The notes under the pieces: model-generated
Seen by the model: the letters and a program-made list of their open reading frames with translations, nothing else
Databases searched by the model: none
What the model was told of the DNA's origin: nothing
Position numbers and translations under genes: made by a program
Source: Vicinamibacteria bacterium
Lineage (GTDB): Bacteria > Acidobacteriota > Vicinamibacteria > Marinacidobacterales > Marinacidobacteraceae
Assembly: GCA_965199715.1 (NCBI GenBank)
Contig: OZ241322.1
Location: 1,184,001 to 1,248,000 of the forward strand
Direction: 5' to 3'
DNA length: 64,000 bases
Shown: piece by piece, positions 2,596-59,330 of the stretch
Position numbering within the stretch: the stretch's first letter is position 1
Layout: each line of letters opens with the position of its first letter

Positions 2596-3539
2596 TCGAG
2601 GATCCGGCGCAGCACGCCCATCTCGATGTTGCCGCCCGAAACGAGGCAGACGATCTTGCGGGGGCGGTCGCGAGGCCCGGGAACCCGGCCCGCCATGGCC
2701 GCCGCCGCGGGGCACGCGCCGGCGCCCTCGGGGACGATCCGCGCCCGGGCGACGAGCGTCCGGATGGCCTCGGCGATCTCGTCGGGGGTCACGAGCAGCG
2801 GCTCGGCGAGCGCCTCCCGGGCGAGGCCCCACATCGGCTCGAGGACGGTGTTTCCGCCGATGCCGTCCACGAAGCTCGGAGTCGTCTCGATCCAGGTCGG
2901 GCTCCCGTGCTCCATCGAGCGGGCGAGCTTGGGAGACGCGGTGCACTCGACGGGGTGCACCGGCGCGTCGGAACCCATGCCGCGCAGCGCGCCGGCGACG
3001 CCGATGCTGAGGCCGCCCCCGCCGAAGGGGACGAGCACCGCGTCCACGTCCGGGAGATCCTCGAGGATCTCGAGGCCCACGACGCCGTTGCCGGCCATCA
3101 CCGGCTCCTCCTCCACCGGATGGACGAACCGGGCGTCCCGGCCCTTCCACTCGTGGGACACGATGCACTCCCACCAGTCGGCGAACGGCGCCACGACGAT
3201 CTCGGCCCCCAGCGCGGCGATCGTCCGTCGCTTGTTCTCGGGAGAGGTCTCGGGAACGACGACGGTGCAGGGAACGCCCCGCTCGCGCGCCATGAACGCG
3301 ACCGCCTGCGCCCAGTTGCCGGCGCTGGCCGTGATCACGCCGCGGGCGATCTCCGCGTCCGAGAGCGAGCCGAACAGCGAGGCCGCGGCGCGCATCTTGA
3401 AGCACGCGAAGGGCTGCAGGTTCTCGAGCTTGAGGTGGATCTCGTCCGGGCCGTCATGGCGGAGCGGCACCAGCGGACTTCTCAGGACGAAGGGCGCGGC
3501 GCGCTCGCGGGCGGCATGGATCGAGTCCAGGGCGATCAT
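2568..3539 (-). CDS. PLP-dependent serine/threonine dehydratase or racemase family protein
   Basis: LKLENLQP..FK.R PLP-lysine motif, TASAGN, VPFGGGGL, SGGN. Confidence 0.88.
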   Translation of the reverse strand: MIALDSIHAARERAAPFVLRSPLVPLRHDGPDEIHLKLENLQPFACFKMRAAASLFGSLSDAEIARGVITASAGNWAQAVAFMARERGVPCTVVVPETSPENKRRTIAALGAEIVVAPFADWWECIVSHEWKGRDARFVHPVEEEPVMAGNGVVGLEILEDLPDVDAVLVPFGGGGLSIGVAGALRGMGSDAPVHPVECTASPKLARSMEHGSPTWIETTPSFVDGIGGNTVLEPMWGLAREALAEPLLVTPDEIAEAIRTLVARARIVPEGAGACPAAAAMAGRVPGPRDRPRKIVCLVSGGNIEMGVLRRILDGETPTSAR

Positions 3540-3576
3540 CGGCGGGAGAGTCTATGGGCGGGGCTACGATGGGGCG

Positions 3577-4353
3577 ATGCTGCTCGTCTTCGACGTCGGG
3601 AACACCAAGACCGAGATCGGACTCCACGACGGGCGGGCCTTCGTGCGCGACTGGCGCGTCTCCACCTCGGTCGAGCGGCTCCCGGACGAGACCGGCGTGC
3701 TGCTCGACGGCCTGCTCGCGCAAGCGGATCGAAGCCGCCGGGACGTCACCGCGCTCGCGCTCGCGAGCGTGGTTCCGGCGGCCACGAGCGCGCTGCGGAC
3801 GCTCGCGGAGCGGCGCTTCGGGCTCCCCCTGTTCGTGCTGAACCACCGCACCGCGCACGGCGTCAAGCTGATGGTCGAGAACCCGGAGGCGACCGGTCCC
3901 GACCGCATCGCCAACACGGCGGCGGTGCACCACCTCTACGGAGTGGACGCGATCGTGCTCGACGCGGGCACGGCGCTCACCTTCGACGTGATCACGGCGA
4001 GCGGCGAATACCACGGCGGCGCGATCAGCCCCGGCCTCGGAATCGCGGCGGAGGCGCTCGTGCGACGGACGGCCCGCCTGCCCGAAGTGGAGCTGCTGCC
4101 GCCGCGCAACGTCGTGGGGAGGCACACGGTCGCGGCGCTGCGATCCGGGCTGGTGCTCGGCTGGACCGGCCTCATCCGCGAGATGGTGCGGATGCTGAAG
4201 GAGGAGCTCGGCGGCGAGCAGAAGGTCATCGCGACCGGCGGACTGGCGCGCCGGGTCGCCGAGTGGAGCGGCGTGGTCGATGAGGTGAACGAGCGGCTGA
4301 CCCTGGAGGGAATCCGGATCCTGTTCGAGCGCGACCGTCAGGCGCCGGCGTAG
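3577..4353 (+). CDS. coaX: Type III pantothenate kinase
   Basis: MLLVFDVGNT, GPDR, DAGTALTFD, GGAISPG, ATGG. Confidence 0.95.
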   Translation: MLLVFDVGNTKTEIGLHDGRAFVRDWRVSTSVERLPDETGVLLDGLLAQADRSRRDVTALALASVVPAATSALRTLAERRFGLPLFVLNHRTAHGVKLMVENPEATGPDRIANTAAVHHLYGVDAIVLDAGTALTFDVITASGEYHGGAISPGLGIAAEALVRRTARLPEVELLPPRNVVGRHTVAALRSGLVLGWTGLIREMVRMLKEELGGEQKVIATGGLARRVAEWSGVVDEVNERLTLEGIRILFERDRQAPA

Positions 4354-42113: not shown

Positions 42114-42944
42114 CTACGGGAACTCGGGGTTCGCGAAGGCGAGGCGCTCGGCCATCACGCGCACGGCCTCGGGATTTTGGTCCACGAGGACCGCGTTCCG
42201 GCCCGTGCGGACCGCCGCCTCGCCGGCGGTTCCGCTCCCGGCGAAGAAGTCGAGCACGTTCTCGCCGGGATTCGTGTGCACCCGGACGATGCGGTTCAGG
42301 ATCGCGAGCGGCTTCTGGGTCGGATACCCGGTGCGCTCCTTCCCGGTGGGGCTCACGATCGTCCGCCACCAGACGTCCGTCGGGACCTTGCCCCGCTGGG
42401 CCTTCTCGGGGCCGACCAGCCTGGGCGCGAGGTACGGGATCCGGTCCGAGTCCTGGAGGCGGAAGGTCCACTTCCTCGGGTCGCGGGTGTACCAGAGGAT
42501 GTTGTCGTGCTTGGGCGACCAGCGGGTCCGCGAGCGCCCTCCGTAGTCGTAGGCCCAGATGATCTCGTTGCGGAAGCAGTCGCGGCCGAATACGCCGTCG
42601 AGCAGCACCTTCACGTAGTGCGCCTCGCGGTAGTCGAGGTGGACGAACAGCGACCCCCGGGGCGTGAGCAGCCGCCGCGCCTCGACCAGACGCGGCTCGA
42701 GGAAGCCGAGGTAGTCGTCGAAGGAGTCGCCGAAGGACGCCGAGTCCCCGGGGATCGTCCGGTAGCGCCGCCCCTCGAACCCGACCCGGTCGCCCTCGGG
42801 GTCGCGGACGGTGCGCACCCGGGTGAGCCGCCGGGTCCGTCCGGTGTGGAACGGCGGATCCAGATAGATCAGCTCGAAGGAGGCGTCCCCGAAGCCGCCG
42901 ATCACCGCGAGATTCTCGCCATGGTGGATTTCGAGGCGCGGCAT
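42114..42944 (-). CDS. Orphan N6-adenine/N4-cytosine DNA methyltransferase (beta-class motif order)
   Basis: LIYLDPPF, NEIIW.Y, YPTQKP, VLDFFAGSGT. Confidence 0.92.
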   Translation of the reverse strand: MPRLEIHHGENLAVIGGFGDASFELIYLDPPFHTGRTRRLTRVRTVRDPEGDRVGFEGRRYRTIPGDSASFGDSFDDYLGFLEPRLVEARRLLTPRGSLFVHLDYREAHYVKVLLDGVFGRDCFRNEIIWAYDYGGRSRTRWSPKHDNILWYTRDPRKWTFRLQDSDRIPYLAPRLVGPEKAQRGKVPTDVWWRTIVSPTGKERTGYPTQKPLAILNRIVRVHTNPGENVLDFFAGSGTAGEAAVRTGRNAVLVDQNPEAVRVMAERLAFANPEFP

Positions 42945-42966
42945 CGGTTCCACCATACTCCCGCCC

Positions 42967-46587: not shown

Positions 46588-46770
46588 TTGCGCGGCGCGA
46601 CCGCCGGGGCCCTGCTCCACGAGCTGCCGGACGCGCACTGCCGGCCGGGGATTTCCCGGGAAGTCATGGAGCGCGCCATGGCTGCCGTGGGAGGGCTCCG
46701 GTCGGGGGACGGAAGACTGGCCGACAGCCACGACGACGAGTTCGCGCTCGCCGTCGAGGAACGATGGAAT
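46588..46770 (+). pseudogene. Orphan duplicate of the antitoxin C-terminal half
   Basis: LLHELPDAHCRPGISRE...HDDEFALAVEERW matches LLAEMLDAHCRPGISRE...HDEEFALAVEERW at about 47040-47200. Confidence 0.8.
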
Positions 46771-46780
46771 CGACGAGAAT

Positions 46781-46797
46781 ATGGCCATGGCTATAAT
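46781..46797 (+). promoter_or_regulatory. -10 box TATAAT with an adjacent palindrome ATGGCCAT (candidate antitoxin operator); leaderless arrangement
   Basis: atggccatggctataat, 6 nt before ATG 46804. Confidence 0.6.
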
Positions 46798-46803
46798 CGC
46801 CGG

Positions 46804-47205
46804 ATGCGCACCCTCCCCGCCGGAAAATTCAAGGATGTCTGCCTGAAGGTCCTGGACGAGGTTCATTCCGACCGAAATCCAATTCTCATCACCAAGTGGG
46901 GCCGTCCGGTCGCGCGGCTCGTGCCCGCAGGTCACTCCGAAATGGTCGGCGAGCCGGTCGCGACCGTGACCGCGGACCCGGTCGAGACGGCGCAGGAGCG
47001 GTTGCGAGTGGCCGCCGGCGTGCGCGGAACGACCCCGGACGCGCTCCTGGCCGAGATGCTGGACGCCCACTGCCGGCCCGGAATTTCTCGGGAGGACGCA
47101 CAAGCGCTCCTCTCGGTCGTGGGTTGCGTCAGTTCGCGAGTCGGGAACCTGTCCGAGAACCACGACGAGGAATTCGCGCTCGCTGTCGAGGAGCGGTGGA
47201 AGTGA
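46804..47205 (+). CDS. Phd/YefM antitoxin fused to an RHH/VapB-like C-terminal part
   Basis: MRTLPAGKFKDVCLKVLDEV....PILITKWGRPVARLVP is a canonical Phd head; stop overlaps the toxin GTG. Confidence 0.85.
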   Translation: MRTLPAGKFKDVCLKVLDEVHSDRNPILITKWGRPVARLVPAGHSEMVGEPVATVTADPVETAQERLRVAAGVRGTTPDALLAEMLDAHCRPGISREDAQALLSVVGCVSSRVGNLSENHDEEFALAVEERWK

Positions 47206-47651
47206 GCCTTCCGATTTTCGTGGACGCGTCGGCGTTCGTCGCGCTGCTGGACGACAGCGACGAACGGCATTCCCTCGCCGGGCGCATCTGGCGGGAATTG
47301 GTCGCGGGGACGTTCGCCGGAACCCGGACTCTCGTTTCGCACCACCCTGTCGTCGTCGAGACCAGCGCCCTCCTGGCTCGCCGATGCGCGTTCGAGGCGC
47401 AGCGCGCGCTGTTCCACACGCTCTTGCCGCGACTTCAGGTCGTGTACGTCACCGAGGAACTGCACGTCCGAGCGAGCTCGGCCTACCTCGCCGCGTCCCG
47501 GCGGCGGCTGTCCTTCACCGACTGCCTCTCGTTCGAGGTGATGCGCTCCGAACGCATCCGGCACGCCTTCGCATGGGACCGTCACTTCGCCGAGCAGGGG
47601 TTCCCATCCCCCCCCGAGATGGCCGCTCAGTCGGGCAGCGTCCCCGAATAG
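47202..47651 (+). CDS. vapC: VapC PIN-domain toxin
   Basis: IFVDASAFVAL...D..H, VVVET, LSFTDCLSFEVM, AFAWDRHF...GF. Confidence 0.9.
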   Translation: MSLPIFVDASAFVALLDDSDERHSLAGRIWRELVAGTFAGTRTLVSHHPVVVETSALLARRCAFEAQRALFHTLLPRLQVVYVTEELHVRASSAYLAASRRRLSFTDCLSFEVMRSERIRHAFAWDRHFAEQGFPSPPEMAAQSGSVPE

Positions 47652-55651: not shown

Positions 55652-56211
55652 CCCGGGACGAGGCGTGGGCGCACCTGACGACGTGGTGCGAAACCGAATC
55701 GCTGCGCAAGCACGCCCGGTCGGTGGAGATCGTGATGCGCGCCGCCGCCTCACGCTACGGCGAGCCGGAGGACGACCCGGACGTCTGGGGCGTGGCCGGG
55801 ATGCTCCACGACGCCGACTACGAGAAGTGGCCCGAGGACCATCCGAACCGCATCGTGGCGTGGCTGCGGGAGCGCGGCGAGGAGGAACTGGCGTACGCGA
55901 TCTCCGGCCACTACACGAAATGGAACGTCCCGCTGAAGTCGCAGATGGACAAGGCGCTGCTGGCCTGCGACGAGCTCACGGGATTCATCGTCGCCTGCTG
56001 CCTCGTCCGCCCCGAAGGAGTCGCGACGCTCGGGGCCAAGAGCGTGAAGAAGAAGCTGAAGGACAAGGCGTTCGCCGCGAAGGTGGAGCGCCACGAGTGC
56101 CGCGTCGGCGCGGAGCTTCTCGGCGTGGAGCTCGGCGAGCACATCGAGTTCATCATCGGGGCGCTGCGCCCGCACGCGGAGGAACTGGGGATCACCGGCC
56201 GCAGGCTGTAG
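55648..56211 (+). CDS. HD/HDIG-domain phosphohydrolase
   Basis: SLRKH...VE..M, GMLHDADYE, ACDELTGFI.AC, SVKKKLKDKAFAA.V.R. Confidence 0.9.
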   Translation: MTRDEAWAHLTTWCETESLRKHARSVEIVMRAAASRYGEPEDDPDVWGVAGMLHDADYEKWPEDHPNRIVAWLRERGEEELAYAISGHYTKWNVPLKSQMDKALLACDELTGFIVACCLVRPEGVATLGAKSVKKKLKDKAFAAKVERHECRVGAELLGVELGEHIEFIIGALRPHAEELGITGRRL

Positions 56212-56233
56212 CTCCGCTGCCGGCGTCGGTCGC

Positions 56234-56527
56234 ATGGGGCAGCGGTGGATCCGCCTTGAGGATTTCAGGGCCAACCCCGGCCAGTGCCCCGCATCGTTGC
56301 CGAGGGGCAAGCCTCGTGATGCGGACGACGGCGCGTCGTATTTCTGGAGTGGTCAGCGCCCGCCTCGGGCGAGACCCGTTGTGAGACTCCCACACTGGGT
56401 TGACTTCGTGAGGTGGAGCCGCGGCCACTACGTGCAGGGAATCTCAGACGAGCGCGGGAACGGGAGAGCGGCGTACCCGGAGGGGCGGACGCACGCGGAC
56501 GGCGCGCCGGGCGAGGACTCGGGCTAG
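56234..56527 (+). pseudogene. Antitoxin copy A (type-2 head with internal deletion, beta tail)
   Basis: MGQRWIRLEDFRANPGQC matches the 56827 ORF; about 70 bp is missing after codon 18; tail DFVRWSRGHYV.GISDE is shared with the 58079 ORF. Confidence 0.75.
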
Positions 56528-56536
56528 GATCACCGC

Positions 56537-56809
56537 ATGGGAGGTGACGGCGTGGCCGAACGGCGGATGAGCGTTCAGGACTTCGAGGCCGATCCGGACA
56601 AGGCTCTCGACGCGGCGAGGAACGGGATCACCGTCCATCTCATGGACGGGGAGCGGCGCGTCGCCCGCGTCGTTCCGATCACCGAGGCGATGCGCGCCGA
56701 TGAGGCCCAAATCACTCCGGGGAATGGCGAGCCGATGGACCCGACTCCACCCGGATTGCGACTGCGAGGCCCGGGCACGAGCCTTGACCTTCTCCGGGAA
56801 TCCCGCTGA
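56537..56809 (+). CDS. Antitoxin copy B, Phd/YefM-like (type-1 head, alpha tail)
   Basis: MSVQDFEADPDKALDAARNGITVHLMDGERRVARVVP fits the Phd pattern; TAGGAT -10 box; alternative GTG 56552 with GGAGG. Confidence 0.75.
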   Translation: MGGDGVAERRMSVQDFEADPDKALDAARNGITVHLMDGERRVARVVPITEAMRADEAQITPGNGEPMDPTPPGLRLRGPGTSLDLLRESR

Positions 56810-56826
56810 CGGGCCGGAGGACAACC

Positions 56827-57093
56827 ATGGCGCAGTGGTGGATCCGAACGGAGGACTTCAAGGCCAACCCGGGTCAGTGCCTGGACGACGTCAGGAGAAG
56901 CCGCACGACGATCGTTTTGACGGAGAACGACGACGCGGATCGCCAGGTCGCCCGCATCGTCCCCGAAGGCAAGGAAGCGGATGCGCGGGAAGGAGCCTTC
57001 CATTGGAGCGGGCGACGGCTAAGGCCGTACACACCCACGGTCCGCTTGCGTGGACCGGGCACGAGCCTGGATCTCCTTCGGGAGGCGCGCTGA
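56827..57093 (+). CDS. Antitoxin copy C, Phd/YefM-like (type-2 head, alpha tail)
   Basis: EDFKANPGQCLDDVRR...IVLTE....VARIVP; GGAGG RBS; TGATG overlap with the toxin. Confidence 0.82.
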   Translation: MAQWWIRTEDFKANPGQCLDDVRRSRTTIVLTENDDADRQVARIVPEGKEADAREGAFHWSGRRLRPYTPTVRLRGPGTSLDLLREAR

Positions 57094-57821
57094 TGTCGCT
57101 CCTGTATGCGGATACCAGCGCTCTGTTCAAACGCTACGTGACCGAGAGCGGCTCCAGCGAGGTGGCCGCCAGGATGGCGGCTTCGACGCGTGTCGGAACC
57201 GCCTTGATTACGTGGGCCGAAATCACTGCTGCTTTCGCACGAGCCATACGAACCAGTCGGATGGAACCGCACGAGGCCCGCACCCTCGTGCGAGAGTTTC
57301 GTGTCCACTGGAGCGAGATCGCGACGATCCCGATCACGGGCGACCTCGTGGAACATGCGGCGGCGCTTGCGTGGAAGCACGGGCTGCGCGGATACGACGC
57401 CATCCAGCTCGCGGCGGCGCTCGACTGGCAAGAGACCCTCGTGGAAGCGAACGGGCAAATCACGTTCGCCTCCTTCGACAACGCGCTCCGCCGAGCGGCC
57501 GCGGCCGAGAGACTTGACGTGTGGCCCGAACTCCCGCTCGTCCAGCCGTGGGGGGTCTCGGATGAGTGGAATCCGCTGTTCGCGGAGATGAGCCTCCCGC
57601 TGGAAGACTCTGGACGGCAAACGCTACGTGACTACGGGGCCAGGGACTCGCTCTCGTTGGCATCGGCCGGAATCGCAGACTTCCGGCATCAGGTTCACGT
57701 GGGTGACCCGACCGTACTGCTCGTGGATGCAGAGCGGCCGCCGCCTGCGGGCGGCGAACCAAGGGAGACCCAAGCCAGGCTCCTCGCATGGGAGGTGACG
57801 GCGTGGCCGAACGGTGGATGA
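57093..57821 (+). CDS. vapC: VapC PIN-domain toxin with a long C-terminal extension
   Basis: LYADTSALFKRYVTESGS, AEI.AA, LRGYDAIQLAAAL, FASFD..LRRAA..E.L. Confidence 0.9.
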   Translation: MSLLYADTSALFKRYVTESGSSEVAARMAASTRVGTALITWAEITAAFARAIRTSRMEPHEARTLVREFRVHWSEIATIPITGDLVEHAAALAWKHGLRGYDAIQLAAALDWQETLVEANGQITFASFDNALRRAAAAERLDVWPELPLVQPWGVSDEWNPLFAEMSLPLEDSGRQTLRDYGARDSLSLASAGIADFRHQVHVGDPTVLLVDAERPPPAGGEPRETQARLLAWEVTAWPNGG

Positions 57822-58078
57822 GCGCTCAGGACTTCGAGGCCGATCCCGACAAGGCCCTCGCCGATGTCAAGGACGGAGTCACGGTCCATCTCATGGACGG
57901 AGATCGGCGGATCGCCCGCGTCGTCCCCGATCAAGGGGGCCATGCGAGCCCACGAGACGGCGGTCACCCCTCGAGCGTGCGGCAGGGCAGATTTGACGGT
58001 ACGCGTCCGGATACCGCAAGGCGCGGGCGACGACCCGGGCCCGACGCTGGAGCCCGGCTGGGGGCCGGGCGATCCAGG
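57788..58078 (+). pseudogene. Antitoxin copy E, frameshifted duplicate of copy B
   Basis: Near-identical DNA to 56534-56670; an extra C in gtccccgatc (about 57925) shifts PIKGAMRAHETAVTP (cf. PITEAMRADEAQITP) out of frame. Confidence 0.8.
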
Positions 58079-58450
58079 ATGGCGCTGTGGAAGATCCAAG
58101 CCAAGGACTTCATGGGCGTGCCCGGGAAGTGCGTGAACGCGGTACGGCGGGGCAACGCGGTGGCGATACTGGAGGGGAACCGTGAGATCGCCCGTATCCT
58201 CGCCGAGGACTCCAACGGAGTCGACGACCACGTCGTGAGCTCGTGGAGCGGGCGCCGTCCGCAACCGGGAAGGCCGCCCGTGGCGCGTCTGCGCGGCCCG
58301 CACACGAGCCTCGATTTCGTCAGGTGGAGCCGCGGTCACTACGTCCCGGGAATTTCGGACGAACCCGAGAACGGAGAGGCGGCCGCGGAACGGCCGACGG
58401 GCACTTCCGATTCGGACCCGCCGACTGCGATCGCGGAGCGCAACGGATGA
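58079..58450 (+). CDS. Antitoxin copy F, Phd/YefM-like (type-2-like head, beta tail)
   Basis: MALWKIQAKDFMGVPGKCVNAVRRG....EIARI, WSGRR, RLRGPHTSLDFVRWSR; ATGA overlap with the toxin remnant. Confidence 0.75.
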   Translation: MALWKIQAKDFMGVPGKCVNAVRRGNAVAILEGNREIARILAEDSNGVDDHVVSSWSGRRPQPGRPPVARLRGPHTSLDFVRWSRGHYVPGISDEPENGEAAAERPTGTSDSDPPTAIAERNG

Positions 58451-58476
58451 ACCGCCTGTATCTGGACACCAGCGCC
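58447..58476 (+). pseudogene. Truncated VapC N-terminus
   Basis: MNRLYLDTSA is a PIN first-strand motif coupled to the copy F stop; homology ends abruptly. Confidence 0.7.
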
Positions 58477-58535
58477 GCACTCAACCCGAGCAACCGTGGG
58501 GCGTCTCGGATCCGCACCCGCGTTCGGAACCACTC

Positions 58536-59330
58536 TCATCCGCGCAAGTGGTCCAACCATGGAACCTCAGCCGGGCCATACGCCACGAACCGGCCCTGAG
58601 CCCCCATATGCCGCTGGTTGAACGGCAGATCCTCGCCAGTACCGATCTCGAGGACCCGTCCGCCCGCTGCCTCAAGCACCGCGGTTCCGGCGGCGGTGTC
58701 CCATTCGCTCAGCACTGCGAAGCCGGGATAAACGTCCACCGCGCCCTCGGCAACGAGGCAGAGCCGGAACGAACTGCTGAGACGCGAGGTCAAACATCGA
58801 CGACCGGTCCTCTTGAGCGACCGGAGGAATCGCAGCCGGCGATGTTCGTCGTCGTGCCAAGGGCTCACGATCCGCACGACGCCGTCCGTAGTGGAGCGAA
58901 CGCGGATCCGCCGGGGCTCGCCCCCGTGGGCATTCCGGTAGATGGCTCCCGACGGTGCGGCGGCGTAGTACGTGTGCCCGCGGACGGGGTGATGGACTAC
59001 CCCCAGTACCGGCCTTGAGTCCCGGATCAACGCGATGTTGACCGTGAAATCCTCGAATCCGCCCTTGAAGCTCCCGGTGCTGTCGATCGGATCGATCAGC
59101 CAGAAATGATCCCAGCCTTGCCGCACCCGGAAATCCGGCATGGCTCCCTCCTCGGACACGACCGGCAGCCTCGGCTCCAGCCGCTCCAACCCGTGGACGA
59201 GCACTTCGTGCGCCGTCCTGTCCGCCCGGTCGCCGTCGTTCTTCTGGCCCCGCGTCCAGAAATTGAGCACCTCCGCCCCGGCCTCCTCGGCGATGCGGGC
59301 GGCGTCAAGCGCGAGCGGCGACAGATCCAT
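58536..59330 (-). CDS. cysQ: 3'(2'),5'-bisphosphate nucleotidase (inositol monophosphatase family), divergent
   Basis: VVSEEG, FWLIDPIDST, FTVNIALI....PVLGVV, CLVAEG, EWDTAAG. Confidence 0.85.
   Translation of the reverse strand: MDLSPLALDAARIAEEAGAEVLNFWTRGQKNDGDRADRTAHEVLVHGLERLEPRLPVVSEEGAMPDFRVRQGWDHFWLIDPIDSTGSFKGGFEDFTVNIALIRDSRPVLGVVHHPVRGHTYYAAAPSGAIYRNAHGGEPRRIRVRSTTDGVVRIVSPWHDDEHRRLRFLRSLKRTGRRCLTSRLSSSFRLCLVAEGAVDVYPGFAVLSEWDTAAGTAVLEAAGGRVLEIGTGEDLPFNQRHMGAQGRFVAYGPAEVPWLDHLRG

Follow-up and report, generated by a model that had tools for sequence, protein, structure and literature searches.

A probable birth-and-death array of a Phd/YefM-VapC toxin-antitoxin module in a Vicinamibacteria bacterium

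Pairs of a Phd-type antitoxin and a PIN-domain toxin (PHD-PIN) are a widespread form of toxin-antitoxin (TA) system of type II, with 285 and 276 gene associations recorded in a source which also describes tandem duplications of COG2880-PIN units in Archaeoglobus fulgidus (PMC2701414). In Klebsiella, 2253 occurrences of orphan antitoxins have been counted, at a median of nine per strain, and that work names degrading TA pairs as one source of them and lists anti-addiction and cross-talk among their proposed roles (PMC7192599). Here we describe a locus in which such a pair appears to have been amplified. It lies in a stretch of 64,000 nucleotides (nt), henceforth the window, from the genome of a Vicinamibacteria bacterium of the phylum Acidobacteriota (assembly GCA_965199715.1, contig OZ241322.1, positions 1,184,001 to 1,248,000). 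At 56234-58511 of the window, the plus strand carries five paralogs (A, B, C, E and F) that are Phd/YefM-type antitoxin genes or fragments of them, one PIN-domain VapC and a 12-codon vapC stub (vapC'), in the order A, B, C, vapC, E, F, vapC stub (Table 1). With a probability that we put at roughly 0.72, what we see is an array formed by birth and death of a single Phd/YefM-VapC (PIN) type II TA module, that is, a known family in the course of a known process, amplification followed by toxin loss, at an unusually legible stage.

The repetition is seen in the comparison of the locus with itself. In a self-blastn search, 56480-57089 aligns collinearly with 57732-58334 at 66.7% identity over 627 columns (E=2.6e-67), and the leaders of these two segments, 56480-56551 and 57732-57802, match with a Smith-Waterman score of 32 versus a null of 10.6 +/- 1.5, a score that 0 of 300 shuffles reach. 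The repeated unit thus consists of a leader, a B-type gene, a C-type gene and vapC, with a period of ~1250 nt. A is probably the C-type gene of a further unit (unit 0): its tail is 80% identical to that of F over 71 nt, and a self-match pairs 56288-56491 with 58191-58399. Everything past the A tail in unit 0 appears to have been deleted, since A abuts the unit 1 leader at ~56480-56491, this leader overlapping the last 16 codons of A. In a tree of four array copies and 43 relatives, from which A was excluded for its deletion, B, E, C and F group together (support 100/97) among Vicinamibacterales-type antitoxins, and their clade is split within into (B,E) with support 100/95 and (C,F) with 96/70; F has a branch length of 1.29. 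The single clade argues that the array copies arose by duplication in their own lineage. Together, the collinear self-match, the matching leaders and the tree bear out the tandem unit of two antitoxins and a toxin that had been proposed in a first-pass annotation of this DNA.

The single full-length toxin gene codes for a clear PIN domain (PF01850, E=1e-10, 42.7 bits versus a cut-off of 23.6), and the profile of its family matches the PIN protein PAE0151 (2fe1) at 9.9e-10. All four acidic residues, D7, E43, D102 and D129, are retained; across 24 aligned VapC sequences the latter three are invariant and D7 is conserved in at least 90%. The protein is predicted to be an Mg-dependent RNase. Among 13 aligned VapC relatives, 12 end at a WPE or WPA motif, where the window vapC has no stop: its open reading frame (ORF) runs on for 96 codons, to 57821, giving a product of 242 amino acids (aa) and overlapping E. 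A hidden Markov model (HMM) of VapC detects only one PIN domain in the array. After its vapC-like codons, the stub continues with a segment, 58475-58511, that aligns to 57526-57563 (0 of 300 shuffles reach the score), and it results from an internal vapC deletion of ~400 nt. The stub copy likewise lacks a stop at the usual VapC end point, and the loss of the vapC stop therefore probably predates the duplication. The first-pass annotation had given the same inventory and order of genes, which we confirm, except that it counted 10 codons in the stub instead of 12 and took as intact a VapC that has no stop at the family end. Within the repeat shared by 57543-57563 and 58491-58511 (90% over 21 nt), neither of the two differences alters the residues read in the vapC frame (QPWGVSD), a hint, from a sample much too small for a judgement, that the vapC extension is translated in part. 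A further vapC 5' remnant was sought at 57590-57632, around a 15-nt exact repeat; 20 of 300 shuffles reach its score, which is not significant, and it is a possible extra vapC fragment that lacks statistical support.

The antitoxin copies are preserved to different degrees. C has GGAGGA 5 nt upstream of it and runs with its stop into the vapC start (TGATG). B has a GTG start 7 nt after GGGAGG, the upstream ATG at 56537 being the start given in the ORF list and in the protein database. E retains an intact head (57803-57949); its tail aligns to the B tail via many small indels (0 of 300 shuffles reach the score), and the stop codon of B is replaced by TGG, leaving E with no stop of its own and E and F together as one 220-aa ORF at 57788-58450. 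The F stop overlaps the ATG of the stub as ATGA. Overlap with a toxin gene is accordingly seen in C (with vapC) and F (with the stub), and not in A, B or E. A has no Shine-Dalgarno sequence upstream, and in the DNA alignment it is missing 70 nt relative to C and 58 nt relative to F, which removes strands 2-3 of the fold. A 19-nt remnant of the ..ARIVPE.. segment survives in A out of frame, and a +4 indel brings the frame back before the WSG motif.

The array antitoxins belong to the Phd/YefM superfamily, to which they are connected through intermediate relatives. When scanned directly against PF02604 (gathering score 29.8 bits), C reaches 16 bits (E=0.01), under the cut-off, and no match was obtained at E<=1 for A, B, the E-F ORF or F; a scan of the array antitoxins against NCBIfam gave nothing relevant. 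Of 12 antitoxins of relatives, 8 pass the PF02604 cut-off and 4 fall below it. An HMM built solely from 64 relatives' antitoxins matches C over its full length (2e-16), B over profile positions 2-90 (2e-10), F (independent E-value 9.5e-8) and the E head (1.4e-4); A is matched by the window's own antitoxin profile alone (4.2e-10) and not by this HMM. The prior assignment of these ORFs to the Phd/YefM and PIN families hence stands for vapC through PF01850, and for the antitoxins other than A through the relatives' HMM, though not at the direct PF02604 cut-off. Against PDB, the antitoxin family profile recovers VapB46 (1.4e-9), 3dbo_A (9.8e-6) and Phd (2.9e-4). In AlphaFold2 models of B and C, a disordered linker joins the beta-alpha-beta-beta head to a short C-terminal helix. 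In C (predicted local distance difference test score, pLDDT, 75) the strands fall at residues 3-7, 27-31 and 40-44 and the helices at 8-23, and B has the same head elements, with a pLDDT of 92-95 over residues 1-40. The top Foldseek matches for both are Phd/YefM-type antitoxins, namely VapB46 (6jqy_D), Phd, 2odk and YefM; the template-modelling scores to VapB46 are 0.80-0.82 (0.80 for B), with E-values of 0.012-0.05 that are weak because the domain is small.

A predicted complex of B with VapC gave weak support for their binding, with a score of 0.47 (runs at 0.50, 0.47 and 0.40, with at least 93% contact agreement and a partner pLDDT of at least 79), the best of three controls reaching 0.00. 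The mark applied to this score is reached by 116 of 157 solved complexes and by 2 of 215 mismatched pairs, counts that are approximate because our own alignments were used. Only 18 of the 157 solved complexes score 0.60 or less, as do both of the mismatched pairs that passed. The pass of B-VapC may reflect likeness, Phd-type VapB-VapC complexes having been solved already.

The first-pass annotation had recognized two head types and two tail types (alpha and beta), combined as 2/beta in A, 1/alpha in B, 2/alpha in C, 1/degenerate in E and 2-like/beta in F. We find these motifs and their assignment correct; however, its further proposal that heads and tails are modules that recombine is not supported by their comparison. 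Head 1 and head 2 can be aligned over their whole length in all five copies, and head 1 is best understood as the B/E branch of one fold. As for the tails, those of the family end in a hydrophobic pair followed by x-E-[DN]-R-x and a stop, with E86 near-invariant and R88 invariant (C numbering), and B and C conform to this with LLRE[SA]R and then a stop. The A and F tails share RL..P.xxxD (RLRGP.TSLD) with alpha and then read FVRWSRG: the stop TGA has become GGY, the last six codons are substituted and the frame stays open for ~33-37 codons more. The alignment of F to the relatives' HMM extends to ..SLDFVRWS. Beta is thus derived from alpha and not a separate module, and the copies can be polarized, with C ancestral in head and tail, B and E derived in the head and A and F derived in the tail. 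Because, given these polarities, only three of the four possible head/tail combinations are present, no recombination is required to account for them. At the nucleotide level the A head is 81% identical to C versus 65% to F, and its synonymous distance is 0.49 to F versus 0.73 to C, over only ~10 synonymous sites; these distances and the excess of nonsynonymous change in F argue that the likeness of the A and C heads is a retained ancestral state.

No other protein with a beta tail came out of a 5.8-billion-protein set, from which only the query was returned; a search of the same set for relatives of C also returned only its query. An Atlas search with F residues 70-123 reached at best 0.78, a score under the meaningful level, and tblastn of F against plasmids gave no match. 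Two origins considered for the beta extension (58335-58446 in F) were rejected: as an internal tail duplication it was compared with B and C, where 170 of 300 shuffles reach its score, and as a frameshifted vapC with vapC and its downstream region, where 80 of 300 do. By eye, the Shine-Dalgarno sequence of vapC is formed by the last codons of the C tail (CGG GAG G), 7 nt ahead of the ATG (57080-57093), and a similar sequence, AGGTGGAG, is retained at the equivalent place in the beta tails (58325-58335), yet no start codon follows it there.

Both tail variants carry a signature of purifying selection, as had been surmised earlier. Over the 16 codons of the B/C tail there are 10 synonymous versus 1 nonsynonymous differences (proportion of synonymous sites that differ, pS, 0.67; nonsynonymous-to-synonymous ratio, omega, ~0.02), 15 of the 16 residues being identical while 9 of the 16 third positions differ. 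The beta motif of A and F, DFVRWSRGHYV.GISDE, shows 7 synonymous versus 1 nonsynonymous differences in its 17 codons (56402-56451 versus 58313-58362; omega ~0.01), in agreement with the earlier remark that these copies differ mostly synonymously; over 24 codons of the region the counts are 10 and 5. The B and E heads are 84% identical over 42 codons, with an omega of 0.29 (p=0.011), and head omega is ~0.5 for C/F and ~1 for A/F. Saturated synonymous sites argue against recent gene conversion as the source of the likeness. The B tail and the beta motif of A and F hence seem to have been constrained through most of their past. A minus-strand ORF behind the third-position pattern of beta was considered and rejected, as none spans 56402-56451 (one ends at 56428 and another begins at 56444).

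The relatives of this module have, as a rule, a simpler organization. VapC has 329 relatives in a large protein set, nearly all of ~146 aa, the best of them (146 aa) at 58% identity. Among the matches listed, 80 related loci with at most 55% VapC identity were compared, mostly from Vicinamibacterales and Chloroflexota metagenome-assembled genomes (MAGs). In 64 of these, a single ORF directly upstream ends on the vapC start and matches the window antitoxin profile at E<1e-3. A six-frame scan of all 80 found exactly one antitoxin stretch in 76, none in two (L001 and L073), one antitoxin gene split in two in L034 and two complete antitoxin-VapC pairs in tandem in L019, a Methylomirabilota MAG; a surplus antitoxin lacking its toxin was found in none of the 80. 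Since these loci supplied the sequences for one of the HMMs, their primary antitoxin matches are circular in part, and it is the absence of second copies that is informative. The tandem pair of L019 (antitoxins at 2285-2557 and 3229-3495, VapCs at 2560-2967 and 3501-3923) is a plausible starting state for the array, and in a Vicinamibacterales MAG (L045, 3507-3872) the vapC beside an intact antitoxin is in two pieces. The first-pass annotation had suggested a search of related genomes for the same architecture; the loci listed provide a tandem pair and not the architecture itself. When 1.84 billion representatives were searched exhaustively with the profile, 62 matches had E<=1e-3, the best after the window's own C, F and B being at 7.5e-17; among the 18 of these 62 that were fetched, those from outside the window show neither a head-1 signature nor a beta tail, and one of the 18 (P0164) is a spurious repeat protein. 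Plasmids, too, carry VapC relatives that are accompanied by Phd-type antitoxins (23 records, 17 of them from Thermus, at 44% identity), as in Thermus thermophilus pVV8, where RefSeq annotates a plain antitoxin-VapC pair.

In keeping with the homology, fold, architecture, duplication, decay and selection signatures observed, we propose the following history for the array. An ancestral antitoxin-vapC pair would have duplicated its antitoxin to give a unit of B-type gene, C-type gene and vapC; two or more tandem duplications of this three-gene unit would have followed, which produced units 0, 1 and 2; the C-type gene in the branch of units 0 and 2 would have altered its last six tail codons and lost its stop, giving the beta tail; and deletions would have taken the whole toxin of unit 0, ~400 nt of the unit 2 toxin, the fold core of A and the tail of E. 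The middle unit is the part most likely to be working today. As to function, we infer binding, repression, RNase activity and the choice of expressed ORFs: C, and probably B, would bind VapC via their shared C-terminal RLRGPGTSLDLLRE.R helix and repress the operon via their N-terminal Phd-fold domains, and VapC, as an Mg-dependent RNase, would be kept inactive by the antitoxins.

Against this stand several alternatives. That the repeats are an artefact of assembly, collapsed or expanded copies of a single vapBC, is extremely unlikely: the copies are 54-84% identical in DNA and each has private indels, the array proteins are present on a contig of 2,348,156 bases, and confusion of the assembler is improbable because copies that differ in 16-46% of their DNA are too divergent for it. 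The proposal with which the first-pass annotation had accounted for the locus is that of a combinatorial library, in which recombination shuffles DNA-binding heads and toxin-specificity tails and the result serves as an antitoxin reservoir against VapC toxins acting in trans or incoming. The surplus of antitoxin ORFs with two tail variants, the purifying selection on both of these, the occurrence of VapC relatives with Phd-type antitoxins on plasmids, and an A copy that in nucleotide identity is nearer to C in its head (81%) and to F in its tail (80%) would all suit it, and an anti-addiction role for orphan antitoxins is already in print (PMC7192599). However, three of four combinations are all that is present, the heads belong to one clade and one tail is derived from the other; at synonymous sites the A head is no nearer to C (0.73) than to F (0.49), the F head having an omega of ~0.5-1; A is without a foldable head and E without a tail; and the search for beta in other proteins, those of plasmids included, came back empty. 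We regard it as quite improbable.

Somewhat less improbable, if still unlikely, is that only C-vapC is alive and that B, A, E and F are neutral duplication debris, B having no stop yet in its frame because the DNA is GC-rich. With ~2% stops per codon (an estimate), open frames of ~90 codons would survive by chance about 1 time in 7; B also lacks the near-invariant family Trp of the WSG motif, a second antitoxin without its toxin is seen in 0 of the 80 listed loci, and no head-1-type relative came out of the profile search described above. This explanation is countered by the B gene itself, whose tail is identical to that of C in 15 of 16 residues with 10 synonymous versus 1 nonsynonymous differences, which fits the family HMM from end to end, is well provided with a Shine-Dalgarno sequence and a start, has a confidently modelled head, and shares with E a head omega of 0.29. 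At the other end is the idea that the locus is a genuine three-gene module, in which one VapC-binding tail is common to B and C, which might, for instance, form a heterodimeric repressor or act as a dosage buffer, and the beta antitoxins (the headless A, and F or E-F) remain under selection as in-trans inhibitors of the array's own, unlinked or incoming VapC; to this we give more room than to the debris explanation, as a tentative possibility well short of even odds. Were it true, the array would be a resident antitoxin reserve with a tail variant found nowhere else, and if B is functional, two antitoxins per toxin would be an architecture present in 0 of the 80 listed related loci.

Birth and death of one module, which we prefer, has its own difficulties. 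The constraint on the beta motif in A and F, neither of which has a live neighbouring toxin, is unexplained by pure decay. The p-values for the tails (6e-5 for B/C, 9e-5 for A/F) come from windows picked for their conserved look, and a rough correction for ~70-80 windows raises them to ~4e-3 to 7e-3. The missing Trp of B counts here too, and the 96-codon extension could impair or alter VapC. A promoter scan of the array showed no sigma-70-like site, scans of the array for terminator-like and operator-like sites found none, and the 72-nt leaders have no inverted repeat. Finally, the order of events rests on a single locus, with no close relative recovered: among the 80 loci listed there is neither a copy from the same genome nor a close relative, the best VapC identity being 55%.

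Table 1. Features of the array and its immediate neighbours, in window coordinates
Feature	Position	Strand	Remarks
HD-domain gene	55693-56208		PF01966; array's upstream neighbour
A, antitoxin remnant of unit 0	56234..56527	+	18 head codons, core gap, WSG motif, beta tail
Unit 1 leader	56480..56551	+	matches the leader of E at 57732-57802
B, complete Phd/YefM-type antitoxin paralog, head 1, alpha tail	56552..56809	+	alternative ATG 56537
C, canonical antitoxin, head 2, alpha tail	56827..57093	+	
vapC, PIN-domain toxin core, 146 codons	57093..57530	+	ORF open to 57821
Post-vapC spacer, readable as vapC C-terminal extension	57531..57731	+	57543-57563 recurs after stub
E, unit 2 copy of B	57803..58078 (GTG start; ATG alternative 57788)	+	head intact, tail frameshifted and shortened
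F, unit 2 copy of C, beta tail and 37-codon extension	58079..58450	+	fast-evolving head
vapC', unit 2 toxin remnant	58447..58511	+	12 vapC-like codons, then 57526-57563 homolog
Inositol-monophosphatase-family gene	58539-59330	minus	PF00459; array's downstream neighbour

An imperfect inverted repeat at 56203-56256, with 19-nt arms that are 74% complementary and 16 nt between them, covers both the HD-domain gene's stop and A's start, and could be a terminator-like hairpin or due to chance. Third-position GC is 0.73-0.83 in the array genes (56234-58450) versus 0.90-0.95 in most neighbour genes, as would fit a foreign origin or a weak adaptation of codon usage. The plus strand also carries a second, unrelated vapBC-like module, at 46588-47651. 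It comprises a Phd-like antitoxin with a start near 46804 (PF02604, 28.5 bits, slightly below the cut-off) and a PIN gene that ends at 47651 (PF01850, E=3.8e-10). The C-terminal tail of this antitoxin (47118-47201) recurs 432 nt upstream (46686-46769) at 76% over 84 nt and in the same open frame, the differences between the copies of HD.EFALAVEERW being, by eye, mostly synonymous; judged from the sequence, it is likely another antitoxin-tail duplication in the same genome. Elsewhere in the window, an N6/N4 DNA methylase gene (42117-42956, minus strand; PF01555, E=4.8e-43) stands without an evident restriction partner in the set of ORFs scanned.

The locus bears on how orphan antitoxins come about: it presents a type II TA module that appears to have been amplified and to be shedding toxins while keeping antitoxins, which is one of the sources proposed for them. 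It also offers a natural test set for VapB-VapC specificity, with two complete paralogs with an identical tail, a beta variant without the near-invariant Glu and a headless copy.

In three-component TA systems such as omega-epsilon-zeta and paaR-paaA-parE, DNA binding and neutralization are divided between two unrelated proteins. The unit of the array resembles these in having three genes, two small ones upstream of the toxin; unlike in those systems, B and C are paralogs, each with a head and a tail, as their full-length profile matches indicate. With the PHD-PIN pairs, such as M. tuberculosis VapB46 (6jqy), 3dbo_A and that of Thermus pVV8, the array shares an antitoxin of ~90 aa with an N-terminal beta-alpha-beta-beta head and a C-terminal helix, and an antitoxin gene that ends on the start of a PIN gene of ~146 aa, but it has five antitoxin copies per toxin, two complete antitoxins before the toxin and a toxin without the usual stop. 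In L019, an antitoxin-PIN unit from this family is duplicated locally in tandem, and the COG2880-PIN loci of A. fulgidus (PMC2701414) are likewise tandem antitoxin-PIN duplications; in both, every antitoxin keeps its toxin, whereas in the array the toxins of the outer units are deleted and the unit holds two antitoxin genes. Like orphan antitoxins, A (with no toxin after it), E (before F) and F (before the stub) have no working adjacent toxin; unlike them, the orphans here share their array with a surviving module and carry a derived tail. A vapBC array with surplus antitoxins did not turn up in a phrase-level literature search. Within a family, and by a process, that are otherwise known, what stands out here is a unit with two antitoxins, a derived tail that is conserved and a loss of toxins that is so cleanly documented.

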